64,000 nt of DNA from Leucoraja erinacea (taxonomy: Eukaryota). The notes under the pieces are model-generated. The model searched no databases and had not been told where the DNA came from. It saw nothing but the letters and a program-made list of their open reading frames with translations. The stretch covers positions 29,016,001 through 29,080,000 of the forward strand of contig NC_073389.1 in assembly GCF_028641065.1 (NCBI RefSeq), in the 5' to 3' direction. This document shows, one piece after another, positions 3,684 through 55,570 of the stretch (position 1 is its first letter; every line of letters starts with the position of its first letter). Made by a program: the position numbers and the translations under genes.

Positions 3684-4869
3684 CAGGTGCACAACCTTTT
3701 ATCCGAAAGCCTTGGGACCAGAGACTTGTCGGATTTCGGACATTTTCGGATTTCAGAATGGAAGATTTTTAGCGTAGATTAGGTAGGTAGCGCGGGCGGC
3801 TTGAAAAGTCTGGAGCAGCTGCCTCCTCCCCCGGAGACCGGGAGAATCATTGCATAAATGTTAGTCAGTTAGTTTGGAGGGATTTTATGTGGTGGTGGTG
3901 GTGTAGGGGTGAAGGGGGAAACTTTAATTCTTAGTCCCCTACCTACCTGGTCGGCGACTCCCAACCTCGCGGAGCTGGGGGCGCCGTCCGGCCGCGGGCG
4001 GCGCCGGTTGTAGCTCCGACCCCGGCAACTCTACCCCTGGCTGCGAGGCGCTCCAAATCCGGCGCGGCCCGCGGCCGGCCGCCCCAGCTCCGCGAATGTC
4101 GGGAGTCGGCGGCGTCGCAGCGCTGGGATAGCAAGCTCCGGAGCGCTGTGGCCGCCTTCTTCCAACATTCGCGGAGCGCGCTGGATTTGGAGCCGCGGAG
4201 CTGGGGGCTCCCCGCGGGCGGCGCCGGTTGGAGCTCCGACCCCGGCAACTCTACCCCTGGCTGCGTGGCTCCAAATCCAGCGACGCTCCGCGATGTTGTG
4301 TGTCGGCGGCCACAGCGCTCCGGAGCTTGCCGCACGGCGACCCGGTAAGGCATTGCCCGCACCCAGCGCTGCGATGCCGCCGACTCCCGACATTCGCGAA
4401 GCTGGGGCGTCCGGTCGCGGGCCGCGGGCCGCGCTGGATTTGGAGCGCCTCGCAGCCAGGGGTAGAGTTGCCGGGGTCGGAGCTACAACTGGCGCCACCC
4501 GCTGCCCCACCGGCCACAGCGCTGCGGAGCTTACTGCACAGCGACCCGGTAAGGCATTGACCGCTCCCCGCCTCTCCGACCAGGTAGGGGACTAAGAATT
4601 AAAGTTTACCCCTTCACCCCCCTTCACATAAAAGCCCTCCAAACTAACTGACTAACATTTAAGCAATGATTTACAGATGTTTAAGCGTCTCCCGTTCTCC
4701 AGGGAGGAGGCAGCCGCTACAGTAGTACAGACCTGGGTTGACCGTGGGTCGTTTTGGGTCAGGTTTGGCGCCAAACGCGAGCTTTGGTGCGCAGACGACA
4801 TCTGGAAAAAATGGCCGGTTTTCGGAGCTTTTCGGTTTCTGGAACACCGGATAAAAGGTTGTGCACCTG
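3684..4869. mobile_element. Non-autonomous Tc1/mariner-type DNA transposon (MITE) in MBTPS2 intron 2
   Basis: TIR CAGGTGCACAACCTTTTATCCG ... CGGATAAAAGGTTGTGCACCTG flanked by TA; long subterminal inverted repeats and internal GC-rich repeats. Confidence 0.9.
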
Positions 4870-5439
4870 TACCTACAAATGTTTTACAGCCAATGAATCA
4901 CTTGTGATATACTTATAACAGTGATTAATTCAAATACAGCAATGTCCTCAAAATATCATGGACATACATGTCCAGATCAGTTTTTGTGACACCGATGGAG
5001 AGATAAATATTGGCTAAGCTTCAGCAAAAACAAAGCAAAATTAATTCAAGCTTTTTTGTCCATTTCCTTTTAATGAAACAGTGGTCTTCAGTCATCAAAT
5101 CTATGCCAGTTCCCAGGGAACAACCCCATTCCCTGCAGCCTCAAAGGTTATTCTCCTTCAACCACCCATTTATTGTGTTAATGATTGGACATCAATGAAC
5201 AGCTCCTTATTGACCTACCAAAACGGAACTGAGGGAAGAGTTGCAAGAGAAACTACCAAAAGGAGTTATTTCTCATAACATTTGGCCTCAGACTATTTTC
5301 TCTTTTACCTTCATACAATTATCACATTAGGATCACCATTAAAACTTAACTGAGTGGTCACATTATCAATAACCAGAATTTTCCAAAAATAATCCTGGCC
5401 AATTTTAATTTTCAGGAGCAACTTTTCAACTCAACTTAC

Positions 5440-7225: not shown

Positions 7226-7432
7226 CGGGAAGGGTAGTGGTGGGGGAGCTCTGAGAGAGAAATCAGCGACAATGTGGAGGGAGTTCTGGAAACTGGGGGT
7301 AAGATGGTAGTGATCCCAGGAACGAGGGCTCTGGGGAAGGTGGGATGGGGTGACTGGTGACACGGGGTGCGGCGGAGGAGCTTTAATCGTGCCATTCCCG
7401 ACCGCAGGCCGAGCCGGAGCCATCCACCTCAC

Positions 7433-7507
7433 CTTGAACGCAGAGTCGGCGAGGCAGAGCGCACACCAAAACCCCACCGGGCCCAGCACCGCCGCGGCGG
7501 GCACCAT
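7433..7507 (-). CDS. MBTPS2: MBTPS2 exon 1 (coding part)
   Basis: ATG at 7507, 75 nt MVPAAAVLGPVGFWCALCLADSAFK, donor AAG|gtgagg, in a CpG-rich patch; phase 0 fits exon 2. Confidence 0.9.
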
Positions 7508-7790
7508 CACACCGGAAATGGCCACTCAGGTGAAGTCAGCTGGGCAAGAAGACGCCCGGGAGACGGCCATGTTGGTGAAGGATCTGCAGTTCCCTCTTAA
7601 ACATTGGTGAAGGATCTAACTGCCACGGTGGCGGCCATGTTGGTATAGGATCTAACTGTCACGGCAGCGGCCATATTGGTATAGGATCTAACTGCCACGG
7701 CGGCGGCCATGTTGGTATAGGATCTAACTGCCACGGCGGCGGCCATTTTGGTTAAGGATTTAATAACCACGGCGCCGGCCATATTGGTCA
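7508..7790 (-). promoter_or_regulatory. MBTPS2 promoter/5' region with ETS site and a 36-bp tandem repeat carrying YY1-like cores
   Basis: CCGGAAAT at ~7512; about 5-6 units of GGCCATGTTGGTATAGGATCTAACTGCCACGGCGGC (GCCATnTT core) immediately upstream of the ATG. Confidence 0.55.
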
Positions 7791-7826
7791 AAGATCTTAT
7801 AGCAAAGCTCTGCTATAAGATCTTTG
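7789..7826. mobile_element. 38-bp micro-MITE, P-superfamily-like
   Basis: TIR CAAAGATCTTATAGCA/TGCTATAAGATCTTTG; perfect 8-bp TSD ATATTGGT (7781-7788 and 7827-7834). Confidence 0.8.
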
Positions 7827-8022
7827 ATATTGGTGAGCAAACAAGGAACTGCAAATGCTGGTTTACAAAACAGCAACAAAGTGCTGGATTTCTCCCTGTA
7901 TAACCTGGGTTTCCTCCCAGCGATCCAGTATCCTTCCACATCCCAAAGATGTACGGGGTTGGTAGTTTAATTGGCCGCTGAAAATGTCTTTGAGTGAGCG
8001 TGGCAGGTTCGGCATAGGGAGT

Positions 8023-8050
8023 CTGAAGAAGGGTCTCGACCCGAAACGTC
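8023..8050 (+). ncRNA. Minimal hammerhead ribozyme motif in a Penelope-type terminal repeat (best-preserved copy)
   Basis: CUGAAGA-A-GGGU(CUCG)ACCC-GAAA-CGUC: conserved CUGANGA and GAAA boxes, stem II, and a GUC cleavage triplet after palindromic ACGU. Confidence 0.55.
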
Positions 8051-8224
8051 GCCAATTCCTTCTCTCCATAGATGCTGCCTCGCCCGCTGAGTTACTCCAG
8101 CATTTTGTGTCTACCAAGGGAGACACAGAATAGGTTACAGGAAGAAAAGTGGGAGAATGGGACTGGTGGGAATGTTCTGAGGCCCGGCATAGACCAGTGG
8201 GCTGAGTGACCTAAGTCGTAATGG

Positions 8225-8257
8225 CAAAGATCTTATAGCTTCGCTATAAGATCTTTG
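8225..8257. mobile_element. 33-bp micro-MITE, same family
   Basis: CAAAGATCTTATAGC-TTC-GCTATAAGATCTTTG with 7-bp TSD GTAATGG on both sides. Confidence 0.8.
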
Positions 8258-8717
8258 GTAATGGTATGTGGAAAATAAATATTTAAGAAGGAACTGCAGA
8301 TGCTGTAAAATCGATCTATGGGCATCTAGCGAAGGAAATAGGCGATGTTTCGGGTTGAGAGTGGCTATTTAACGTTGTATATGTCTGCCTCTACCACCTA
8401 TGGGTGTTAGTTCTAGATAAACTGATAATCGTCATGCCATTGAATATCAAGATAGGTGATTTAATTCTCTCTTGTTAGCTTTTTTTTGCTTTATCTTTAT
8501 GGCATGAATGGTATCAGCATTTGTGGATGTAATATGGAGTCATTGACTATCTGTTGTTAAGGAGCTGGTAATGGAATTGAACTTTTGTGCAATCATTAGT
8601 GAATCGAGCCACATTATGGAAGGTATTGACTGAAGACAGTTGGGTCTAAGACACTTCCATCACTAATTCCTGAAGCTATATCCTGGGGTTGGGATGACTG
8701 ATCACGATCATGATCAC

Positions 8718-9137
8718 CACCCCAAGTACAAGACACCCCAAGTACAAACACACCAACGGCTTCTGCCCCTACGGAACCCGCTGCCACTTCATGTACAACT
8801 CCGAGGAGGAGCGAGGAACCCGGCCTCGCCTGCGCCAGCCTGGGCTCGGCCTCCTCCGGCCCGGCGCTCGACTGGGCCGCGCTGTGGGCAGCCTTCAGCC
8901 CTGAGCTGGAGTTGGAGCTGGCCTGGACTCTGGGCTGGGCAAGGGAGGGGAAGGAGGTTGCTGCTGCGGCCAGCACCGCCATCACCAGCAGCTCCAGCGG
9001 GCGCCCGGACTGCACATGGTCAACATGAGCCCGTCCGCAGTCCCTCTCTCCGACCAGGACGACTCCAGCAGCAGCGGCTCTGAGTCGCCCGTCTTCGAAC
9101 AGGGTCGGCACTACCCAGGATCTTGCTGTCGGACTGA
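8718..9137 (+). pseudogene. Decayed ZFP36/TIS11-family (tristetraprolin-like) retrocopy, second CCCH finger to C-terminus
   Basis: HPKYK(T)...[28 protein letters not shown], then SDQDDSSSSGSESPVFEQGR and a frameshifted LPRILLSD-stop (remnant of the RLPIFxRxSxSD CNOT1 motif); the ELC segment with the first Cys is lost and the frames are broken. Confidence 0.8.
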
Positions 9138-9631
9138 GGGGAGGGGGGTGGAGGTGGAGGGCTGCCGGCCAACCCGGCGGGACAGACAGAGCCGAGCTGG
9201 AGCCAGCTGCTGCAGCACTGGTTGCAAGGCCAGGGCCGCCCCGCCAGCCAAGGACCACCCCGCCAGCCCAGGGCTACCCCGGACAGGGACGGGACACCGG
9301 GGAGGGGACGTCCCAGCAGCAACTCAGCAGCACTTGCAGCGACGAAGAGCCGGGCACGACCCCGACCACGGACGAAACGCAAGCCTGCACACAATGCAGC
9401 ACCACCATTGCCGAGACTGTTTATAGCTAGTGACCTATGACCTGGGCATGCGCAGTCGGAATACCGAACTCGCTTATTGGGTAGCTCCAAAAGAATTAAG
9501 ATCAGCAAAATGGCCCCTCTCCTTGCTTAGATTATTTCATTTTTGTTAATGAGACATAGACAGAAACAATTTTGAATAGTTATGATCATCATATGAAAAA
9601 TTCTGTTGTACAATTTGCTCTTTAATAGTAC

Positions 9632-9637
9632 TTTATT
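9632..9637 (-). terminator. Probable APOO polyadenylation signal
   Basis: AATAAA on the minus strand ~190 nt after the predicted stop codon. Confidence 0.5.
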
Positions 9638-9829
9638 AGATCATTTTATATACACATTTCTGTATGATTGAGAGGGTTTTGAACCCATTTTTCCAACCAA
9701 AAATAAATTTCTGATGAATTATTGAACTCATCATAAGAAGTGATTAAATTATAATGATTCACCTTCATTATGTTCCACAAGAAATATTGCTTCAGTTTTA
9801 GTTCGTGTTTCTTCAGCAGAACCATTCCA

Positions 9830-9838
9830 TTAATCCAC
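9830..9838 (-). CDS. APOO: APOO probable last coding exon (VD-stop)
   Basis: Branch-point-like TACTGAC, then ttttctgacag|GTG GAT TAA; phase 0 matches exon 7; followed by an AT-rich UTR and AATAAA. Confidence 0.5.
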   Translation of the reverse strand: MD

Positions 9839-10469
9839 CTGTCAGAAAATAATTTCGGTCAGTACCTTTACAAAGGTTATCCGGCAGTTCTTTACCTGGG
9901 GTAAGGATGATTCTGGCTGACCCAACCTGCTATCATTTGGCCTGTTACTGAACACTTAAGTTGAAGGGCCAAGTCACTGACATGGTGCCCTTGACAATCT
10001 ATCCCCTTTGATCCTGGGGGTGGTGGAGGTGATGGGTTCTTTCTGCTGATAAAGTGGGAGCGGAAAGAGTCGCACTTCTGTCAGTTGCGTGTGGTGAGGC
10101 AAGCTGACTTAATAAATGGTTGCCTGAAGATCAGTGGACCATCCAGGATTGGATAGTCCAGGGGAGCCACATGGGACTATGGATACTGGAATCTGGACCA
10201 GGTATTAGATGGCACCAGATGATGATGGGCAAATGCAGCCAGGTTTTGGGGTGGGGGAAGAAAACATTAGAGTATGGAGTCAGTAGCTGATGGAAATGGT
10301 GGAGAGAAAAATGGGCCTCTTATCCACACAGTATTTCAACTGAGTCTCCTATCCCGCTTCTCCAACTTGTTCCATTGGCCATCATCCTTCCATTTATCTG
10401 GTTCCACATCACCTTCCTCCTCAGATTCCCTATCTGCAGCCCTTTTTTAATACATTTTATACCTTCCAC

Positions 10470-10715
10470 CTGTTTTGATCCTCACCGCGGGTGCTGTCTG
10501 AACAGAGTTTGCACATTCTCCCTGTGAGCGCGTGGGTTTTCTCTGGGTGCTCCAGTTTCCTCCCACATCCCAAAGACGTGCAGGTTTGTAGGTTAACTGG
10601 CTTCTGTAAATTGGCCCTAGCGTATAGGATGAACCAGTTGGTGTATAAGTGATCACTGGTCAGTACGGACAGTGGCCGAAGGGTCTGTTTCTATGCTGTA
10701 TCTCTAAACTAAACT
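10470..10715 (+). mobile_element. HE1/V-SINE-type SINE
   Basis: V-domain GGTGCTGTCTG..AGAGTTTGCACATTCTCC..GCGTGGGTTTTCTCTGGGTGCTCCAGTTTCCTCCCACATCCCAAAGACGTGCAGGTT and a (CTAAA)n tail. Confidence 0.75.
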
Positions 10716-11992
10716 AAAAATCTATTCTCCTAAATATATTCGTGATTTTATACACTTTAGTATTTAGTTTAGTTTAGAGACACAGGCCCTATGGCCCATC
10801 AAGTCCACGTTGACCACCTGTTCACACTAGTTCTTTGTTATCCCACTTTTTCAGCCACTCCCTATCCATTTAACAATTCTACAATTAACCGACAAATCTG
10901 CACGTCTTTGGGTTGTGGGAGGAAACTGGAACACCTGAAGGAAACTCACACAGTCATGGAACAGACAGCACCAAGGTCAATGGTTCCTGTATTATTCTGT
11001 TCCTTTATTATTACGTCTACCATGTTACAGTGAGATTCCTTTTTTGTTTGCATCAGGATCAAGCCCGCGTTTCTGGCACTGTGAGGCAGCAGCTCTACCA
11101 GCGATTTAACCTTCCAGAGCGACCTGCCCTTCAAAATCTTGCTCCATCTGTTCCCTTTTCCCCTCATTCCCTTTTCATAGAACTGAATGGCATCTGATAG
11201 CAGGCAATCCCACAGGTTAGGGGATAGGGAGGACTCAGTGCATACCTGCTGGCGACACACTTTAAGAGGAACATTTCAGACACGACTTAAACCTCTTTAA
11301 CTTTTATAAATGTATCATTGTGAGCAAATTATTTTTAAGAAGAGACATAGAACAAACAAGGGTAAAGAACAAAATGCTGGAGAAGCTCAACACACGAGGG
11401 AATGGATAGATGATGTTTCAGGTCAGGACAGGACAAACACGAGACTTCAGATTCTCATCATCTATATGTGAAGAATTTAACATTATTATCTTGTACACTT
11501 CTTGAAGTAGACATAGAGTTACAAGAGATATTTTCCACATGATGTATGCAGGGAGATTGAACCGTCTGGCAATCTATCTAGAAAGTGGGTCAAAGCCCAT
11601 AATCCCTTTATTATGTGACAATTGATCTGTGTTGGTGGACAGTCACACAAACCCTTCAACATGGGATTGATCTGCGAAGGGGGCAGAGCCCAGTGTCACA
11701 CAGACCCTCCACAATGGGATCTGTTTGTCCAGCATGACTGTGTTATACAAATCCTTCACTTATATAGAGAAACAGTGCCATGGAAGTGATTCAGAATGGA
11801 TCAGTCTGTCTGAACAAGATATAGTGCCACACCATGCTTTGACTTAGCAACAATCTGTGCAGAATTTTGTGCTATACAAACTATTTATAATGTAGTTATG
11901 GAGTCACAGTTGATATGTGTAGGGTTATAAGAAACAGAAAAAGGTCAGGCCTAGATGATTTCAAAGTTGAATAAGACAGAAAATGAAACCAC

Positions 11993-12109
11993 CTTATTAC
12001 TCCCCTGTGTTGGGGAAGGTTCTTGGTTGTGGTATCTGTATTTCTTCCACAGTGATTCAATGGCTAAATACGATTGCATGGACATTTCATAAAGCGATGA
12101 ACCGGTCAC
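11993..12109 (-). CDS. APOO: APOO exon 7
   Basis: ttctcag|GTG...AAG|gtggtt; 117 nt VTGSSLYEMSMQSYLAIESLWKKYRYHNQEPSPTQGSNK (human [22 protein letters not shown]); the 3' boundary is less certain. Confidence 0.85.
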
Positions 12110-12743
12110 CTGAGAAAAGTAGAGCAGTTAGTCATACACGTTCGCTACATGTGGGTTTCAAAGGATCCAAAATCACCTTGACATTGTTACTTAGCTTGCT
12201 TTTTTAATGAAACCATTTGTCCTACCCCCCCCTGCACCAAACTAGGGTTACAGCATTGTCTTCTGTTCACAATTTAAATGGATGTGAACCAAGTCTCAGT
12301 GGCTTCTCAAAAAAACACAAGCAGAAAGTGTTGACTGTACAGTATGTATCAGTTAATCTCTGCTGGTGTTTTCATCACACCTCCCTCAGACCAACACCCA
12401 CTTCACCCTGCCGTTCACTGCCCTACTTTTTATATATTCCCTCAAATTCTCATTCCACTTCCTGGCTCATCTCCCTTCAACATCTCTCCTGCTGATTTTA
12501 ATTACACACTGCAGTGCCCTAGCCGAAATGTATTCCTTGGACAGATAGCATTGTATATTTGTTGTATGACCGGACCAGTGTTCAAATCTCATTTCAGCAA
12601 TAATAAAATAAGTATGAACACATAGTTCAGTTCAGCAAGGGCGAAATATATTAAATCCCAACTGCGTTAGTAATGTTCTTTCAGGGAAGGGAATCTGCCT
12701 TGTGTTTCTGGTCCACCCAGTGAGAAATTGCAGACACAATGTA

Positions 12744-13679
12744 TATGGGTGTTTCCGTAAATACACCACTCAGTAGTGAAACTGAAGGTCTCCAAACTTA
12801 CAGGTTATTTTCCTGTTTTTTATGTAATATTCCCATTGTTTCATATTCTGTATTTTAAGTATTGTAGATCATGGTGTAGAGCCAAAATAATGAGATGAAG
12901 CAAAAATAAATGAATCTGTTTTTACAAAGAAAAATATCAGATATGTCTTTTTTCTTGCCTTTTATTGTGACATTTTTCAAGCAGAATTTCACCAAATCCT
13001 TAGGCTAATTTATACCACAAAGATTACATTAATTTTTAAATTAAATAACTCTATATAAGCCAAACTCTGATTGTGCTTATGATTTTTATTATTTAATCAC
13101 CCGATAAGATGGTTTTCTGATGCCCCAAGCTTTTGCAGCAGAACGTGAATAACAGTGTCCATTTGGTCACGTGTGAAATGGGTGAATTACAAGCAAAGTA
13201 ACCGTTTTTATATTTATTGTTTCTTTTTTTATCGTTTATATTTTGTGTTTAAGCTTTCCATTAAAATACTTAATAATGAATAGAACTTGAAATCATGAAA
13301 TATAAATCTAGTTTGCTCACCTATTTTATCAATCTCATATCTGTAGTCCCTCCGGTTTTGTTTGCACTCGTCGCAATTTTAAAATTTTCTTTTTTAACAA
13401 TGCGATTGTAATGATCCTGACCTGAACTATGGGCCTCGTGGTGTTACGTGCTAACATTTTGTAAGGGAGCTTAGAAATCAATATATTATTTTTCTCGATT
13501 TTGTTTTTCAATATAGTAAATTTTGGTCCCATTTTCGTCGATTTTGATCACAAATTAGCTCAAAATTATCAAAAGGTAGACCCATTTTTTATGCTGTGGT
13601 ATTTCATTATGATTTAATAACTTTCGAATTTGGCCACCCATGTTACAGGTTGGTACCCTTATTTACGGAAACACCCATA
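12744..13679. mobile_element. Non-autonomous TA-targeting DNA transposon in APOO intron 6
   Basis: TIR TATGGGTGTTTCCGTAAATA ... TATTTACGGAAACACCCATA in TA context; AT-rich non-coding interior. Confidence 0.8.
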
Positions 13680-14491
13680 TAGACTCTTATCTGCAGCCTT
13701 GCAAAACCACTCAGATGACGGGCCATTAAGGATGGAGAGTAAATGCTGGATTTCCTAATGACATCCATGTCACTTGAAGAAAAAACAAGATTACAGCTGC
13801 AGATTAACTAGCCAGTTCGATTGAATGAAAAGAGGTCATTTGAGGTATTCTCATCAGCACTTTGTCATGGATGGTACATTCTGAAAGATTCATTAAACCT
13901 ACTCTTAAGTGTCCTAACATGTGGACCTGACAACAAATGCTCCACCAGCAGTAGCAGATGGTTTGATAATTCACTGCACAAGCTGGCACTGGCATTTCCC
14001 TACTCCAAAGAGTGCATTGTCAACAGAAAATCTAAAGCAGTTTTTGACAACCTGTGCCAAAGACACTAATTAAATGCATCAATTTCTTTGGGATATATTT
14101 TAAACAGCATAAATAATAAAAAAAATCCTGAGGCATGTCAAACAGATATAAATCATATTTTGGGGACCTGGAAGATTGTACGCCCTGGAATTTTGAGGGG
14201 AAAAAACAAAGTGCTGGAGGAACACAGTGGGTCAGGCAGCATCTGTGGAGGGAAACGGACAATGTTTCGGATAAATTTCTGATGAAGGGTGCCAGCTCAA
14301 AATGTTGTCAGGCCATTTCATTTCACAGGTGCTGCCTGACCCGCTGAGTACCTCCATCAGTTATTTTTTAGCTCATAAATCATGTTTAACAATTCAAATA
14401 TTTAGAATGAATCTTAACACCTAGTTATTGTTTTGATATTTCTATGATGGAATCAATCAATGTGGAACTGGGATTCAAACAAGGTACTCAC

Positions 14492-14583
14492 CTTTGTGAT
14501 TTCAACTGTTGCTTGAGGATAATACAAAGAGGCGCAAGCAGCTATAAACCCGCATGAATAAATCACTTTCCTTGCACGGGAAC
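14492..14583 (-). CDS. APOO: APOO exon 6
   Basis: tatag|GT...AAG|gtgagt; 92 nt (G)SRARKVIYSCGFIAACASLYYPQATVEITK, containing the ASLYYPQ motif. Confidence 0.93.
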
Positions 14584-15401
14584 CTATAATTTCATCAAAA
14601 TAAATATAAATGTACTTAAATGAAGCCAATGGAATACTAGAAATGAAACTGAAATCAACCCATCTTATTTAGAGAGATTGTAACCAGCAGTTCAACATCC
14701 CAGTGAATCTGGTGCTGGGGAGGGTGATAGTATGATTGGACATGCAAAAACAGAGGGCATTCGTTTACCTCCCAAATTGTTTTTTGGCCAATCTCAAGTC
14801 ATGGCTCCAGTTCATAGGGCCTATTTGTGTCCAAGGTAGTATATGTGCCTGTGCCAGGAGATTGCAGACATAAGCCAAACTCAGGGATTGTAAAGCAGCA
14901 ACCTATGCTTGCGTTTCAAGTGTAGCACTGTCAGAGTGTAGTTTTGTGAATGAGGGGATAAAGCAAGATACCGCATCCCCACCAGTGATGATGAAAAATC
15001 CCATGGCACAACTCGGAAACAAGATCACGTACTACTGGTGGCCAAACTAACACTGCCCTCGGTGATCCCCATCTCATTCCTTTTATTACAACTCGCTGTG
15101 CACACATTGGTTGCAACAATGTCTATCTAACAGGAGGCAGCTGCAATGCATCATAAAAAGTTTATGTCCTTTTATATTGTCTTTGCTCTCAGCCTCTTCC
15201 GTTTCTTGTCTATATCCTCCGCAACAACCCTCCCCCCACCAAGCCACGATGGTGTGTGCAGGTGAACGTTAACCATTGTATTTGTTTTGGTGAAATGGAA
15301 GAGTACAAGTCACTTAGTCATTGTAATTGCATGACTGAGCTCAGATAGGCTTCATCAGATGATAAACTGCATCTAAAATGAAAAGTTGCTCCTGGACCTA
15401 C

Positions 15402-15500
15402 CCCTTCCGGCCAGCAGTAGACCTGCCACTCCAGCGAGTGTGATGACTCCAGCCCGTGGGTAAAATCCCGATGGCGGATTCTTCAGAAAGATATAGCCGT
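15402..15500 (-). CDS. APOO: APOO exon 5
   Basis: gacag|AC...G|gtaggt; 99 nt (D)GYIFLKNPPSGFYPRAGVITLAGVAGLLLAGR, with GxxxG transmembrane segment. Confidence 0.93.
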
Positions 15501-16898
15501 CTGTCAGAGACAACAAAAAACATCAGGACAATCCATTACTACGACTGTGTTTATGAGCTAACGGTAAATGTATTTCCTTGGTGAAAACAAGAGGTAGAAG
15601 GGTGCTGTGCACGGTATAACCAGTCATAAAACAACTAATTTTAATGATTAAGCATCCAATATGCATATAGGAAAGGTTTAGAAGGATATGGGTCAAATTC
15701 ACGCAAATGGGACTAGTTTAGAGGGAGCATCTTGGTCAGTATGGACGAGTTGGGCTGCAGGGCCTGTTTCCACACCTTATGACACTATAGACACAAAAAC
15801 TGGTATGACGACTAGGGAGGGGGAGGGACGTAGAGAGGGGGGATGCAAGGGTTACTTGAAATTAGAGTAATTTATATTCTGCATGGAATACATGAGATTT
15901 GTTTATTGCACTGTAATTGGGTTCAGAGTGCACAATGATGGCCATGATTTAGGTTTAGTCTGCTGGGACAACCCACATGATTCTAAGTTAAGCTATTTTT
16001 ACAACACACACATTATCAGTCCAACTATCAGTATTTCAATGCCAATGAGAGGACTACCAAAATTGAAAACTGAATAAGACATTATGTATGATAAATTTTG
16101 ATGAGCAAAATTATTTCATGGTAACGGTCCTTGACACACATGACTGAGCTTGGCCACCTTAAAACCACGTTCACATGTGAATTAGCAAAGTAACAGCTGC
16201 CAGCTGTTCATCAAAGTCAAATGGTTTTGAGCTAGCCTTAGATGTGCTGAAATGGGTTCATTGATCAAACAGCAGTAATCCAGGGGCCTGATCTCCAGTT
16301 CGATCACCATATACAGCAGCAGAGAGTTCCTGTGTAGATAGTCAGTGAACGGAAGCAAAGCATTGCTCGTATATTTTAAACTGTCAAGACACAGAGAGGT
16401 GTCTATTTAGAGCAACCTGGTGCCCTTGTACTTAGGTCAGCAGAGGTAATATACAGGCATTGCAAGCAATTCTGAAGGGCTCTATTGCAAGAGGATTTGA
16501 TTACAAGTGTGGAGATGCTTTGCTCCATTTACATAAAGCCCTGGTATGTCTGCAGCTGGAATAGAGTGAATAGGTATGATCTGACTACCAAAGGAAAATA
16601 CACTTGCAACAGAGGAACTGCAGCACCAGGTTTATACTTGGGACAGTGGGTTGAGGAGAGATTAAACAGACTGGACATAATCTCCAAGAATTTAAAAGAA
16701 TGAAAGGTGTCTCTTCAAAACATGCTAAATTGTTGTGGCACTTCAGTAGATGCAGAATTGCGCTAAAAATGCAGTTAATTAGCATTACGGCAAAAGGTTA
16801 GCCATGAACGGAAGAGCTGTGTGATCTAATCACACTTCTATTTCTTAAACCTCACTCTGTACAAAGCACCAAAATGTACCACAAACTCAGATCCTTAC

Positions 16899-16953
16899 CT
16901 TTTCCAAACTGGACAGTTCTTTCTATTTTAGGCTGAAGATTCTTGTAAACACC
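16899..16953 (-). CDS. APOO: APOO exon 4
   Basis: cctcag|GGT...AAG|gtaagg; 55 nt GVYKNLQPKIERTVQFGK. Confidence 0.9.
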
Positions 16954-17643
16954 CTGAGGAGAAAAAAAAGTTAATAAATGAATATAAAAATCTGTCTTCA
17001 CTAAAGAACAAAGTCCACAATTGCATTCACTACTCTGCGCCTGAAGGCATTTCTGTTTGTATTAAATGAAACGTTTCTAAGTACCATCTTTAACAAAGGT
17101 CCACGTTTGATAAGATTACTAAATGCTTATGGGCATAGGTAAAATGTGTCAATATCTAGGGTTTTCTTCAGATACAAACCCTGTCCTGTATTGGAGAATC
17201 CACTATTAATTGGGATCTGCACCTATACCTAGCAAATCCAAGGAACAATGATAGCAATCTAATAGTTAAAACAAGGTGACACAAGAAACTCCAGATGCTG
17301 GAATTTTAAACAAAAACCTAAGTGCTGGAGCATCTCAGCGGCTCAGGCAGGGAGTGGACAAATGCCATTTTGGGTCAGGACATTTCTTCAGACTGCAGAA
17401 AAGGTCTAGATCCAAACCATCATCTGTTCATTCCCTCCACAGTTGCTGCCTGACCCACTTAGGTGCCATTTTATTTTTTAGTTAAACAAGGAGATTGCAA
17501 AAAAGTTCCCAGAATACAGTAACCCAGACTTCTACCAACTTCTCTCATTCTTGGAGGAAACTATTGGGAAACCATTGAGTCATACAATTCAAATAAATCC
17601 CACTTTTTTCTCCACAGAACAAAACTCGAGAGATTTGCCATAC

Positions 17644-17763
17644 CTGATACTGGGCGGCATATGGTTTGATGTGGTTCCGCAGAGCAGAGATCCTCTCTTC
17701 AAGCCGAGTGGGTTTTGCATCCTCAAAGTGATAAGCTTTAGCTGGAGTTGTATAAAGTGACAA
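17644..17763 (-). CDS. APOO: APOO exon 3
   Basis: ctgcag|TTG...CAG|gtatgg; 120 nt LSLYTTPAKAYHFEDAKPTRLEERISALRNHIKPYAAQYQ (human LSLYSVP...QLEESISQLRHYCEPY), closer to MIC26 than MIC27. Confidence 0.93.
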
Positions 17764-17798
17764 CTGCAGAACAAAGATAGAACACTTTTGCAATAGAC

Positions 17799-18134
17799 CA
17801 GGGGTCTCCAAACTATGGCCGCGGGCCGCATCCGGCCTGCCTCAAGATTTTATCCGGCCCGCAGCAAGCTCTTAACACGTTCCATGCGTCAGTTTGCCGT
17901 GGGCTTTCTAGTTGAGGGTTTGTGTGCAGCTCGGCGGTAGCGGTGGCCCTAGTGAGTGACTGGGTGTGGGTGGGTGTGAGTGTGTGCGAGTGGGTGGGTG
18001 TGTGTGTGAGTGTGGATGAGGGTGTGTGTGTGTTGGTGGGTGTGTGTGTGGGTGAGTGAGTGTGTGTGAGTGGCCCACAAAAATGTGCCAAATATATAAT
18101 GTGGCCCTCATGCTGAAAAGTTTGGAGGGCCCTA
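17799..18134. mobile_element. hAT (Charlie-like) MITE
   Basis: CAGGGGTCTCCAAACT ... AGTTTGGAGGGCCCTA; 8-bp TSD CAATAGAC/CTATAGAC; internal TG-rich microsatellite. Confidence 0.8.
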
Positions 18135-18229
18135 CTATAGACCATTGAACGGCTGCCTACACAGGCTAAAATAACAACACTAATGCAACCATTTACCAAT
18201 ATGAATTTGTAGAAGAATTTGTGAGTTTG

Positions 18230-18523
18230 TGAGATGCTGTTGTGGCCTAGACATGCAACTGCAGTTATCACATGCTGGTGGTGGAGGGATGAATGTAAAG
18301 AAAGAATTTGTCTCCTGTTAGGATCTCCCATGCTGGACAGGTCAAAGGATAGAGGCAAGACGAAGAGTGATCCAGGTTCGAGGTTGAGCACAGGGCTAAC
18401 AACCCTGTCTCGTAAAACAAATATGTTACGGAAGCAGCAACTGAAGGAATCAACAAGGAGTGGAGGACCTTCGTTGCTGCCCTACATGCCAGGAGGCATA
18501 ATAGGCAGTAAGTATGTAAGTAA
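18230..18523 (+). mobile_element. Short RTE-derived non-autonomous retroposon
   Basis: RTE-type 5' UTR motifs (CTCCTGTTAGGATCTCCCATGCTGGACAGGTC...GGGCTAACAACCCTGTCTCGTAAAA) joined to an RTE-like 3' end (TTCGTTGCTGCCCTACATGCC) and a (TAAG)n tail. Confidence 0.6.
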
Positions 18524-18719
18524 GAAAGAAAATGTAGTAATGACTGGGATGTAGATCTGCGTACAAAAGGTCACTGTCATCTCAGAGAAGCTGATTTCCC
18601 AAACAACTAACTCGCCTCTTCTTACAATGCATGCTTTTTCTTGGTAAATCGTCTCAGTTGATCTCTCCCTCCGATATGGAACATGTCAATAATATCAAAG
18701 TAAAAAATAAAAATGTTAC

Positions 18720-18815
18720 CTGCTCAACTTTGAGAATCCCTTTCCTTTCTTCGTTACTCTGTGCAAACACAGTTGCTGACACAAAGCTTGTGCGGAGTGG
18801 AGCCAATCCAACCAG
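18720..18815 (-). CDS. APOO: APOO exon 2
   Basis: ttgcag|CTG...CAG|gtaaca; 96 nt LVGLAPLRTSFVSATVFAQSNEERKGILKVEQ. Confidence 0.88.
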
Positions 18816-18855
18816 CTGCAAGAAAATGTAGTTACTGCAGTGGCCAACATTTAAT

Positions 18856-20703
18856 AGCGTTGTTACAAAACCTACCATCAGCAGCGCTGTAGATCTGTCA
18901 CTGCCGGTGTGTGTGATTCTGGAGGCTTTGGGGGCAGGGATTAAAATGCAGATTTGTATTGGTTGACGGAGAGGGATTTCCTCGGGCTGCTAGCTGATGA
19001 AGAAAAATCGTTCGGGCTTCCCTTCCCTTTTTTTTTAAATTTGCTAGACCATTGTGTCACTGGATTGAACTTAAACCGCCTTCAACATCACGGATCGCAA
19101 TATCAGGACAAAACAAAAGGTATGTCGTTTATTTAACATATTATTCTGCTTTTTGATGTGGCTTCATTTTAATCTTATGATGCGAAAAATGTTATTTAGG
19201 ACAGCATACGAATCGGCCTTGTCTTGCCTGCCGATATGGGCTTAAATTTATGGCAACGGCAACATTCCAATCGAAACCATTCCAGAAACATCCACTCCCC
19301 AAGATAATCAAATTCTTGTTTTTTTATGCACAATCATGCCATAAGAACATCTAAATCATCTATATTTTGTGTTATTGTCCATCCATGATCAATATTTCCA
19401 TATTAAATACCCAGAGTACAGTTTTAGTCAGATGTATTGTGCAAAAAATAATGATTTTGATTATCTTGAGAGTGGATGTTTCTGGATTAATTTATGGGTA
19501 TTAAAAATTAAATTCCTTCCATTTGGCATATAAATTTATGACAAAGTGAGATTTAAAAATCATGTTATAATGTGAATTCTTGTGTGAATGGGATCAGTTT
19601 GTTATTCGTTATTAGGATACTTAGGCTATTTAAACATTTTAGCCTTTTCTTAAGAAATGAATAGATGTTTAGATCTAGTAATTGAATTTAGATTGAATTG
19701 ATTAGATGAATTAGATTTGATGAAACTGATGAATATGATTTTTTGTTGGGTATTTACTATTTGTTTTAGTGTTTAACTATCATTTCTATCTTTTTTCTAA
19801 AATTGCAAATAATAACTTGTTTCTGTTAATGTTGTTCAGTGTTATTTTTCTTTACATTTTAAAAAGATGTCTCCAAAGAAGAAATGCAAAATTGTCAATC
19901 CAAATGCCCAGCAAGAGACTGATTTGGACAGCATTCGCAGAGATTATCCAAATTTGGACTACTCCAAATGTGATGATCTACATGACATTCTTAATGGGAA
20001 AGTAGTGGGCCGAAAGGCATGTCATGCGTGGTTCGAAGACCAAAACGTTGTAGTTCACAATGCCAAAATTGAAAAGTTGAGGAAAAACAAGGTGTACAGA
20101 GTTGCTTGTTGTTTACAATCTGAGGAGTATGATGATGCTTCTGATTATGATATGCCAATGTACCAGCTAGCAACTGATCTTCTCTATAAAGACGGTCTTT
20201 TGCTAGAAATTGTCATTTCTTTACCGATCTGTTACAGACTTACAGCATATAATACAATAATATTAAAGTTCTGAACTTGAGAATATCACATTTTTTAATT
20301 TGCAAGGCAGTCTGGGTGTTTATTACTATTTCTGTCACAAAGATCAATTTTGTAATTAGCTACAATTAGGTAACTAACTAATTATATGCTTTAATATCAG
20401 GTCATCCAAGTAAGATGTTTTATATTTGTTTCAGAATGCTTCAATATACAATAACTGCCAATTTCATTCAGTTCTCTTAATTTTTAAGAAAGTTATGGGC
20501 TTTTGACTGTCCTCGATCACAGCTTTTGTGTTAAGTCAATGGAAAAGCAATAGGGAACAAGATGCCAATTTCCGAGTATGACTTTTACAATACTGAAGAT
20601 ATGAAAGTGAATTAGGTATCAAATTAAAGTTATTTTTATTCTTTATCTGATGGGATAAATTATAGGCTTGATTTTCAAGATTTCAAAATGTTGGAACATT
20701 CCT
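18856..20703. mobile_element. 1.85-kb DNA-transposon-like element in APOO intron 1 carrying an ORF
   Basis: Perfect flanking direct repeat ACATTTAAT (18847-18855, 20704-20712); imperfect TIRs AGCGTTGTTACAA / AGGAATGTTCCAA (rc). Confidence 0.7.
19867..20274 (+). CDS. Element-borne hypothetical 135-aa protein with N-terminal NLS and Tudor/Spin-Ssty-like pattern
   Basis: Open frame with globular composition in AT-rich DNA; ATG directly after a pyrimidine tract and AG; upstream donor AG|gtatgt at 19120; MSPKKKCK. Confidence 0.5.
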   Translation: MSPKKKCKIVNPNAQQETDLDSIRRDYPNLDYSKCDDLHDILNGKVVGRKACHAWFEDQNVVVHNAKIEKLRKNKVYRVACCLQSEEYDDASDYDMPMYQLATDLLYKDGLLLEIVISLPICYRLTAYNTIILKF

Positions 20704-20724
20704 ACATTTAATTTGTGGAATATA

Positions 20725-21359
20725 GGGTGATTTCACCAAAGGTCAAATGAGCGTAGATCCCCCCTCACGTGACTGAAACATTTAACTGGAGGACATGTCA
20801 CTTCGGTACATGTTAGTGAATGGGGAAACACGCACTTTCACACCCGTTAAAAACATGGAAAACGACCGATGGAACTGAAGGTGCCAATCCAGCGGAAGTG
20901 CTTAGCAGACATTTGCCATGGAGATTTAAAGGTCCAAAATATCAGGAATTATCGCGTTTGCTCGCAGAATTTCATCAAAAGTAAGTTAATAATGCCTTAC
21001 TTTTGACGAAATTCAGCGAGCAAACGCGATAATCCCCGATATTTTGGATCTTTAAATCTCCACGGCAAATCTCTGCTAAGCACTTCCGCTGGATTGGCAC
21101 CTTCAGTTCCCTCTTGTAATTACCTTACTTTCTATCTTTTTCTTTGCCTGAAAATTTAGGTCGCTGTGCTTCTCGGTCACCCCGACTAGCACAGAAAATT
21201 TCAGCTCAAATATCGGCCGTTTTCCATGTTTCTAACGGGTGTGAAAGTGCGTGTTTCCCCATTCACTAACATGTACCGAAGTGACATATGTCCTCCAGTT
21301 AAATTTTTCGGTCACGTGAGGGGGGATCTACGCTCATTTCAACTTTGGTGAAATCACCC
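20725..21359. mobile_element. Foldback-type MITE with ~260-bp inverted arms
   Basis: GGGTGATTTCACCAAAG ... CTTTGGTGAAATCACCC flanked by TATA; arms pair up to a 10-nt loop at 20986-20995. Confidence 0.85.
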
Positions 21360-21479
21360 TATAAGATCTTTGGATGGGACCCCATCACTGGCCCGCTAGT
21401 TCACGGGGTGTAATGCTACCCGTGGCCTCTGTCCTCCACTGATCCCCTGCCACTGACCGACACAGACTGTCTGTCCTCA

Positions 21480-22330
21480 GCAGCTTCAGATCTCTTCCTG
21501 GCCCCGACCGTACGGACTTGGCTCCCACGTCCAGCCCCCGCTCGCCGGGACCCCCCCCCCCCCCCGACCGGATCGGACCCCGTCCCCACTCCCGACAGAA
21601 TCCTCGACCCGCCCCAGCCCCCGGTCCCACACAGACCGGGATCTTCCGCCGGGACCACCCAGCCCTCACCGCCCCCGCCCCGCTACACCCAGGCCCCGCT
21701 ACCACAGGCCCCGCTCCCCCCGACCAGGATCCCTTCCCCCGGGCCCCCCCTCGGCCCCGCTCCCCCCCAGGCCCCGGCCCCGCTCACCCGGGCCTCGGCC
21801 CCGCTCCCCCGGGCCTCGACCACCCCGGCCCCGCTCGCCCCCCCGCCCGCATCGGCCCCGCTCCCCCCGGCCCCGCATCGGCCCCGCTCCCCCAGGCCCA
21901 GGCCCCGCATCGGCCCGGCCCCGCTCCCCCCCCCCGGCTCCCCCCCCCCGCCCCGCCCCCCCCGGGCCTCGGCCCCGCTCCCCCAGGCCCGGCCCCGCTC
22001 TCCCCCGGCCCCGCATCGGCCCGGCCCCGCTCCATTCCCACCATCTTGGCGCCGCGTCCTCCGCTCGATGCTCGGGTCGAAGCGTTGGGCTCCTCTATAA
22101 TCTTTGGTCCAGACCCCGTACGGCGGCCGCGGGAGGACGGAAGCGCCGCGCGAATTCAAAATATGCGGCGCGGCGGTGAACCCGCCAAACCAAAGATTAT
22201 AGAGCGGAGCCAGACATCGGTGGTTCAAGGCTTAAAGTACAGTGAGGGTCGGTGACGGCCGCTGGATGAGTGAAGGGGTTTGCGTTGTTGGAGAGCGTGG
22301 GTTCAGTGAGTTGGGGCGCAGGGAGACGTC
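21480..22330 (-). promoter_or_regulatory. CpG island / APOO promoter and exon 1 region
   Basis: Very high GC/CpG; GGCCCCGCTC repeats; ETS CGGAAG at ~22138; AAGATGG YY1-like motif at the start codon. Confidence 0.7.
22042..22044 (-). CDS. APOO: APOO probable exon 1 coding part (start codon only)
   Basis: GGCGCCAAG-ATG|gtggga in a CpG island; phase 0 joins in frame to exon 2; an alternative donor at 21787 is out of frame. Confidence 0.5.
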
Positions 22331-23922: not shown

Positions 23923-24061
23923 ATGGCGGCGGTGAGGGTTGCGGAACGCCGGAGCGGAGCAGTGCGACCGGCGCCCAGCCCGGGCACCCCGCACGCCGAC
24001 TGGATGGGCAGCCTCCCGCGGTCACTCTGCGCCCTGCCCCTCGCCAACCTCGCCGTGCCGG
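23923..24061 (+). CDS. PLCXD2: PLCXD2 exon 1
   Basis: ATG in CpG island; MAAVRVAERRSGAVRPAPSPGTPHADWMGSLPRSLCALPLANLAVP(G)|gtaaga; ADWM.SLP...LPL.NLA.PG is the PLCXD N-terminal signature. Confidence 0.92.
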
Positions 24062-34033: not shown

Positions 34034-34137
34034 ACATTTAGTAATTCTTCGTTCTTATCAGTCTTATGTGCTTTTGACGCCATTCTTTACAACACCACGG
34101 AGGTACAATACATATACAATACAATACAATACATACA

Positions 34138-34345
34138 AAGTCTCCAGAGGAAACCTCTGGAGACTTTGCGCCCACCCAAGGTTTCCGTGTGGTTCCCGGA
34201 GGTTTTTGTCAGTCTCCCTACCTGCTTCCACTACCTGAAACCTCCGGCAACCACCTGCAACCTCCGGGAACTGCACGGAAACCTTGGGTGGGGCGCAAAG
34301 TCTCCAGAGGTTTCCGTTCAGGTTTCCTAAGTGAGACAGGGGCAT
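34138..34345. mobile_element. Palindromic MITE remnant (Harbinger-like end GCCCCTGTCTCACTTA, rc)
   Basis: Inverted arms CTCTGGAGACTTTGCGCCCACCCAAGGTTTCCGTG / CACGGAAACCTTGGGTGGGGCGCAAAGTCTCCAGAG. Confidence 0.6.
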
Positions 34346-55229: not shown

Positions 55230-55570
55230 CTCGTGTCCAGCGCGCCGCCGGGTCCGCCCGCTCCCCGCCCCCGTGTGCGCGCCCCCCGCTCCCGCCTCCA
55301 CCCCTGCCTGCCTGCCTGCGCTACGTGGCCGGAGGGAGGGAGCGGCGGCCGGGGGGAGGGAGCGCACAGCGGTCCGGCCCGAGGGGCGGCGGAGCCGGCG
55401 ACAGGCGGAGTGTGAGTACCCGAGCCCTCCCCGGAGCCCAGGCTCACACTTCCCACACAGCAGGGGCCAGGACTGGGCTGGGCTGGGGAGAGGAGCAGCC
55501 TGTTCACGCCGGGGTCTTTGGGGGACGTAGCGATGGCTGTGGCTCCTCTCCGCAGCCAGCTGACAGGGCG
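55230..55570 (+). promoter_or_regulatory. CpG island with probable non-coding first exon of the next gene
   Basis: CpG-dense, GC boxes CCCCGCCCC, TACGTG, donor GTGAGT at 55412-55417. Confidence 0.55.

Follow-up and report, generated by a model that had tools for sequence, protein, structure and literature searches.

Promoter-proximal hairpins in the skate Leucoraja erinacea as possible excision scars of a P-type transposon

Introduction

Promoter targeting and staggered cutting are both established for the P element of Drosophila. Further marks of the P superfamily are GTP-dependent cut-and-paste chemistry and insertion that favors replication origins as well as promoters. Its transposase cuts 17 nt inside the terminal repeats and also needs internal binding sites beyond the 31-bp repeats (PMC7776569). 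The donor ends retain 17-nt 3' tails, and the commonest short-microhomology excision junctions are built as target-site duplication (TSD), tail, tail and TSD, with a 2-nt overlap between the tails and a length of 30 bp in 14 of 68 cases and 32 bp in 5 of 68 (PMC2895639, Table 1). The overlaps are AT or TA, and both TSD copies and both tails are kept (PMC2895639). Within the P superfamily, TSDs of 7 and of 8 bp are found (PMC3276498, PMC4168063, PMC3698922). Here we analyze a 64-kb stretch of DNA from the skate Leucoraja erinacea (contig NC_073389.1, 29,016,001 to 29,080,000; hereafter the window), which carries two short hairpin elements, E1 and E2, upstream of the gene MBTPS2. A related hairpin was found on a metagenome contig, L004. 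We lean toward reading these hairpins not as mobile elements but as the excision scars of a transposon that probably belongs to the P superfamily. A P-type origin is likely the best fit, and we infer both the membership and the excision, because neither a transposase nor a parent element was found.

The hairpins are similar to Drosophila P footprints in having flanking TSDs, terminal tails only and a join at a self-complementary dinucleotide, and in their handful of recurring lengths around 30 bp, with asymmetric or one-sided products as well (PMC2895639, Tables 1-3). They differ in that the skate tails are up to 20 nt long, the join is GC or CG, the TSDs are of both 7 and 8 bp, and the sites are natural vertebrate ones rather than laboratory products. 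Galileo and 1360 share the 7-bp and occasional 8-bp TSD and the single-end copies (PMC4168063, PMC3276498), and the E2 target starts with GTA, as does the Galileo consensus. However, the repeats of Galileo are long and its transposase is known, and the skate and L004 TSDs fit its palindromic consensus loosely. Zebrafish Pdre/THAP9 is alike in its short CA...TG ends, 8-bp TSDs, one-ended cuts and flanking deletions after excision, though the 13-bp end of Pdre2 differs in sequence from the skate ends; in assays, zebrafish THAP9 excised without integrating (PMC10983969). MITEs (miniature inverted-repeat transposable elements) that consist of ends only, such as Made1 of Hsmar1, are comparable in being almost only terminal repeats with a microhomology junction (PMC3814204). 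Made1 differs in that it belongs to the mariner family and was amplified as one form. It has a TA TSD and is about 80 bp long.

A literature search turned up neither this hairpin family nor any naturally occurring P footprint from a vertebrate. Since Repbase, Dfam and subscription journals were outside its scope, the family may already be catalogued. The only literature match to the 14-mer element end concerns an unrelated bacterium.

Results

E1 and E2 were the sole loci returned by an exhaustive scan of the window for hairpins with a TSD (perfect arms of at least 10 bp, length 22-119, TSD 5-10). This bears out the coordinates and the 8-bp and 7-bp TSDs that an earlier note on this DNA had given for two complete elements. 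E1 has perfect 16-bp arms and an 8-bp duplication of ATATTGGT. E2 has perfect 15-bp arms, a 7-bp duplication of GTAATGG, and a 20-nt arm with the tip GCGAAGC. They are located 282 bp (E1) and 718 bp (E2) upstream of the MBTPS2 ATG. The folding z-scores of the two elements are -6.8 and -9.0, and dinucleotide shuffles produced one hairpin with 12-bp arms in 4 of 60 trials and more than one in none of the 60. The 14-mer end is present in exactly five copies, four within E1 and E2 and one at 21359-21372. No further copy of the exact 12-mer or 14-mer was found elsewhere in the window, as the earlier note had also reported for the rest of the stretch. The hairpins are genuine target-site-duplicated, transposon-derived insertions. 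Chance and terminator-like structures were considered as explanations and rejected. A third hairpin with arms of 12 bp or more, at the end of another element (34136-34168), is unrelated in sequence to E1 and E2.

To assess the hairpins outside the window, 4 of 24 listed sequencing runs, one for each of organisms A-D, were compared over positions 7380-8720, with only differences of at least 5% being tabulated. The depth over E1 and E2, which is not a copy number here, exceeds the depth of flanking unique contigs by a factor of 355-908 across the four runs (about 355-443 for E1). It is therefore taken solely as evidence for a repeat family. The hairpin is a repeat family in the four organisms, and the family probably comprises hundreds of copies. 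Shorter hairpins recur in every run: E1 minus 5 bases (33 bp; 3-7 contigs per run), E2 minus 5 bases (28 bp; 7-12 contigs) and E2 minus 3 bases (30 bp; 5-7 contigs). Each of these length variants holds 4-13% of the depth, and at least five forms coexist, of 28, 30, 33, 33 and 38 bp.

A different explanation is that the 28-38-bp hairpin is itself a mobile MITE, made of terminal inverted repeats only and moved in trans by an enzyme that cuts at its very ends. To our knowledge, it would then be among the smallest mobile DNA elements. The several hundred-fold depth and the length classes that recur in 4 of 4 runs can be understood in this way, as can the perfect arms and TSDs, and microhomology-mediated end joining at an excision site can create MITEs (PMC3814204). 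A mobile MITE should combine a high copy number with a uniform length and sequence. The depth indicates the former, but the coexistence of five or more forms, and the difference between the E1 and E2 arms at positions 16-17, are not what the latter predicts. In addition, a P-type enzyme could not free such elements as a duplex. A staggered cut of the 17-nt type leaves a 28-33-bp element without a duplex core, and because internal binding sites are also required, it is difficult to see how one element could be both "P-type" and "mobile at 33 bp". We consider a mobile hairpin unlikely. The earlier note had proposed mobile micro-MITEs of 33-38 bp; the length classes and the geometry better match excision scars.

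This geometry is seen in the arms. All ends begin with CAAAG, and five separate 20-nt arms have AGC-RR-AGC in common at positions 13-20, a pattern that covers positions unpaired in E1 and extends to one arm outside any hairpin. Every form can be read as two tails that meet at a self-complementary GC or CG with a 2-nt overlap. Written as tail lengths less the overlap, E1 is 20+20-2 and E2 15+20-2, while the three variants correspond to 15+20-2, 15+15-2 and 16+16-2. Tails of 10-20 nt allow about 101 end-to-end joins, and those with a microhomology of at least 2 nt number 7-11 per arm pair; their products include 5 of the 5 observed forms. Three of the five full arms terminate in GCGAAGC or GCGGAGC, and the remaining two differ by a change that is compatible with CpG decay. 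The GCGNAGC mini-hairpin is exceptionally stable and resists nucleases (PMC13037366). ViennaRNA predicted no structure for isolated 20-nt arms, and such models miss mini-hairpins according to the same source (PMC13037366).

The same arithmetic is found outside the skate. Scans in which a single degenerate 20-nt arm served as the pattern returned 50 loci from metagenome contigs and 2 from viral contigs. Among these 52 loci, 50 lie in stop-free frames of at least 112 aa, show neither a hairpin nor any resemblance to the window, and were discounted as chance matches; L004 and L047 are a single site that was assembled twice. At L004:2988-3020 there is a 33-bp hairpin with a 7-bp TSD, a GC-TTC-GC junction as in E2, and a 15+20-2 join. 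Its long arm is identical at 19 of 20 positions to the end at 22191, one of two sister-variant single ends in the window (Table 1), so the sister variant matches the arms of a complete element. Since the search pattern required one arm only, the repeated join independently supports a repair rule, from a single locus. The presence of the 33-bp form in another animal could also be expected of a mobile MITE, but the arm sequence that carries the repeated join differs here, and this speaks for a repair rule over copying. The hairpin lies between a Laminin_N gene, whose start is 663 bp away, and a divergent BAT2_N gene with a coding exon about 2.5 kb away and what may be its first exon, non-coding, at about 600-700 bp. 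The presence of introns and the lack of CpG depletion suggest that L004 is host DNA of an invertebrate animal. The region L004:2280-3690 looks like a divergent promoter region between the BAT2/PRRC2-like gene and the laminin gene, and it has a AAGATGGCG word at 2417. The exact hairpin pattern had no match in either viral or metagenome contigs, and the sister hairpin pattern had none in viral contigs. A degenerate hairpin pattern matched 8 prokaryote loci, with a TSD at 0 of 8.

The TSDs of E1, E2 and L004 (8, 7 and 7 bp) and the ends starting with CA, as those of P and Pdre2 do, fit the P superfamily, to which the earlier note had assigned the elements. A regular expression for THAP transposases found none in the window or the 52 pattern loci, and the "CANRG" terminus rule of that note was not confirmed from the P-superfamily literature. 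The hairpins could instead be extreme internal deletions, left by abortive gap repair, of a hAT or another transposon with an 8-bp TSD, with no P-type cut involved. That the P transposase was not found is in keeping with this, and CA...TG ends are not unique to P. Abortive repair, however, predicts a broad range of lengths, whereas the arm of every complete form is at most 20 nt. Furthermore, hAT excision footprints arise from flank DNA and not from element ends. Minor hAT groups with a 7-bp TSD exist. The TSD of hobo, a hAT element, is also 8 bp, but it is so in 99.8% of cases (PMC3276498), and two of the three TSDs here are 7 bp, so that a fixed 8-bp TSD was not found. We regard an origin by such deletions as quite improbable.

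An empty site can be looked for in the runs. In run X13, a contig piece stops exactly at 7780 with 42 letters left, the last piece not being displayed. The predicted joint is 7780 for an empty E1 site, and 7775 or 7783 for an extra tandem unit, given that the aligner sets each joint as far left as it can, as was verified at the 7578-7647 joint of this X13 contig. From the piece ending at 7780, an E1 empty site is probably present in X13. The earlier note had proposed to look for empty sites in related species; none was seen at E2. An empty site fails to separate a MITE from a scar. The 36-bp tandem array that precedes E1 (Table 1) is 68 bp shorter in X13, and its coverage is partial in run X9. 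Each of its units contains a GCGGCCATNTTG word, which we take to be YY1-like, along with a 10-mer that agrees in 9 of 10 positions with part of the element end. Derivation of the array from the element was considered and rejected; despite this match, the flanking units suggest an independent origin. To the right of E2 (8282-8360), the contigs of X6, X9 and X13 all cease aligning at 8360 with 211-234 letters beyond it, and the short interspersed element (SINE) fragment there has therefore probably been shortened or replaced in the lineage of the window.

Besides the complete hairpins, three single ends lie near exon 1 of an APOO-like gene, 672, 49 and 147 bp from its start codon (in the order of Table 1). 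All three solo halves described in the earlier note are present, but the one at 21360-21372 is not free-standing. One-sided loss is seen after P and THAP9 excision (PMC2895639, PMC10983969), and the single ends fit such loss. The segments 22093-22106 and 22191-22210 form a perfect 16-nt inverted pair that faces outward around an 84-bp segment. Counted as 14-mer matches with 3 mismatches, the sister ends do not exceed chance (10 hits, where the shuffles average 7.06). The outer flank of the end at 22087-22106, GTCCAGAC, agrees in 7 of 8 positions with the target motif of Drosophila P that is given in Table 4 of PMC3276498.

The palindromic element next to the first single end either inserted into a 13-nt end or owns that end and has lost 9 bases on its other side. 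Its inner sequence departs from AGC-RR-AGC, and insertion into an existing end is therefore favored. The element was compared with ISL2EU, for which we used an AT TSD in the context A-AT-T, ends beginning with GG, and a THAP-DDE transposase. A duplication of AT or TA/TATA is readable, but the outer A/T bases misfit this context. Its arms can be read as a decayed THAP-like N-terminus that ends at a splice-donor-like GTAAG. For this reading (20993-21205) no relative was found in Pfam, a homologue search, 1.84 billion representatives or a protein atlas. We therefore make no claim that it is a transposase remnant, and the palindrome stays unclassified. The palindrome truncates an AT-rich element at 18856-20720 that begins with TAG and contains a 118-aa protein remnant. 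Over half of its length, the remnant has 66% identity to an unnamed 309-aa protein, whose atlas neighbors are eukaryote clusters without names; where their origin is known, most are from cnidarians and molluscs.

All five sites in the window are within 720 bp of a start codon. Within 750 bp of four promoter-like anchors lies 9.4% of the window, which gives a post hoc p of about 0.009 for two independent clusters. No end is found at two of the four promoter-like places, the putative first exon of a PI-PLC-X gene near 23924 and a CpG-rich stretch near 55.3 kb. The latter, an exon-like stretch at 55240-55420 that terminates in a splice-donor-like word, served as a promoter-like control. The promoter association, which rests on three loci, is suggestive. 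The promoter link of the earlier note is in line with the five sites and L004, which all lie within 720 bp of a start; its restriction to housekeeping promoters finds no support, given the laminin neighbor and the two bare promoter-like places.

Selection offers one more explanation of this setting. The end sequence could have been retained near promoters because it is bound by a factor, of the THAP type or another, or because it forms a cruciform; promoter proximity would then be a matter of function or retention and not of targeting. The near-identity of the 20-nt ends in the skate and a distant-looking animal agrees with this, and the outward pair brackets its 84-bp segment just upstream of the APOO-like start. 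The GCGRAGC tip of three of the five long arms, a very stable mini-hairpin to which a phage RNA polymerase responds by recognition (PMC13037366), would also suit such a role. However, the TSDs, which differ from site to site, demonstrate insertion, and E1 is probably absent in a close relative. We see retention by selection as very improbable.

MBTPS2 is on the minus strand, and its exon 2 is 100% identical to a Leucoraja erinacea record, with exon 1 matching residues 1-25 of the protein in that record. This identity settles the host, which had been taken to be a chondrichthyan, as a skate. The gene with its start at 22042-22044 is presumably APOO, with a putative exon structure; Pfam searches of single exons gave no match. 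Other repeats and remnants were noted in the window. A GC-rich element of about 1.2 kb with long nested inverted repeats lies in an MBTPS2 intron (3684-4871) and explains the CpG peak at 4001-4500. A GC-rich stretch at 8700-9420 resembles a decayed CCCH zinc-finger retrocopy, which we assume to be ZFP36-like. A short element at 17790-18140 has inverted ends and a near-perfect 8-bp flanking repeat, and we take it to be hAT-like.

Table 1. Coordinates of the elements, single ends and gene landmarks in the window
Feature	Position	Strand	Remarks
E1, 38-bp hairpin	7789..7826	.	Read as two 20-nt terminal tails with a GC overlap; probable excision scar
E1 TSD, 8 bp, left copy	7781..7788	+	Right copy 7827-7834
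E2, 33-bp hairpin	8225..8257	.	Read as 15-nt and 20-nt tails with a GC overlap
E2 TSD, 7 bp, left copy	8218..8224	+	Right copy 8258-8264
36-bp tandem array, 5.2 copies	7603..7788	+	Last unit contains the E1 target site
Single end, 13-14 nt	21360..21372	-	Sequence of the E1/E2 ends; in APOO-like intron 1, abuts the palindromic element
Sister-variant single end	22087..22106	-	Faces away from segment 22107-22190
Sister-variant single end, 20 nt	22191..22210	+	Tip GCGGAGC
635-bp palindromic non-autonomous element	20725..21359	.	GGG...CCC, TATA on both sides; unclassified
MBTPS2 coding exon 1	7433..7507	-	ATG at 7507; translation is residues 1-25 of protein P0004
APOO-like gene start codon	22042..22044	-	Name and exon structure putative

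Discussion

We suggest that the hairpins could have formed as follows. A longer element, whose existence we propose, would have inserted near a promoter and produced the observed duplications of 7 or 8 bp. A transposase would then have cut in a staggered manner about 20 nt inside the ends, leaving a 3' tail on each flank, by analogy with the 17 nt of Drosophila P. The tails may have annealed at a self-complementary GC (positions 14-15 or 19-20) or CG, a route that would yield the observed lengths of 28, 30, 33 and 38 bp. Alternatively, and more speculatively, a single tail might fold back on its GCGNAGC tip and prime synthesis, giving the 33-bp form. One-sided loss would produce the single ends. 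The scars would be small enough to be tolerated in promoters, and hence may accumulate there.

Several points weigh against scars of this origin. The junctions in PMC2895639 come from Rad51-deficient flies, and the wild-type products in that source are mostly of partial synthesis. At 20 nt, the proposed tails are longer than those of Drosophila P, which measure 17 nt. The TSD lengths of E1 and E2 differ, whereas single P-type families are usually about 98% fixed (PMC3276498). No transposase, full-length parent or filled allele was seen at the E1 and E2 sites. The X13 contig at E2 ends at 8221, where a plain empty site expects 8217. There is some circularity in how E1 and E2 fit, since their own arms supplied the tails. 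Lengths of 38, 33 and 28 bp could arise from a single mobile master too, by slippage between its GC repeats, which are spaced 5 nt apart.

The excision-scar explanation can be extended to a broader and more tentative one, which we hold to be possible though doubtful. An undescribed P-type lineage would target promoters in the germ line of a vertebrate and cut about 20 nt inside ends whose GCGNAGC tips fold into a nuclease-resistant mini-hairpin. It would have left hundreds of stereotyped scars in skates, and ends nearly identical to these in an invertebrate-looking animal. Within this extension, such near-identity would imply horizontal transfer or very deep conservation.

If the hairpins are scars, a vertebrate genome preserves hundreds of natural events, each of which records both a landing site and a repair product. 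Sequence alone could then test whether P-type elements target promoters in vertebrates and how general the long staggered cut is. If this is true, tiny MITEs that consist of terminal inverted repeats only and carry TSDs can be dead-end repair products. The family would then be a fossil record that can be counted, mapping promoter-directed insertion as well as germ-line end joining.

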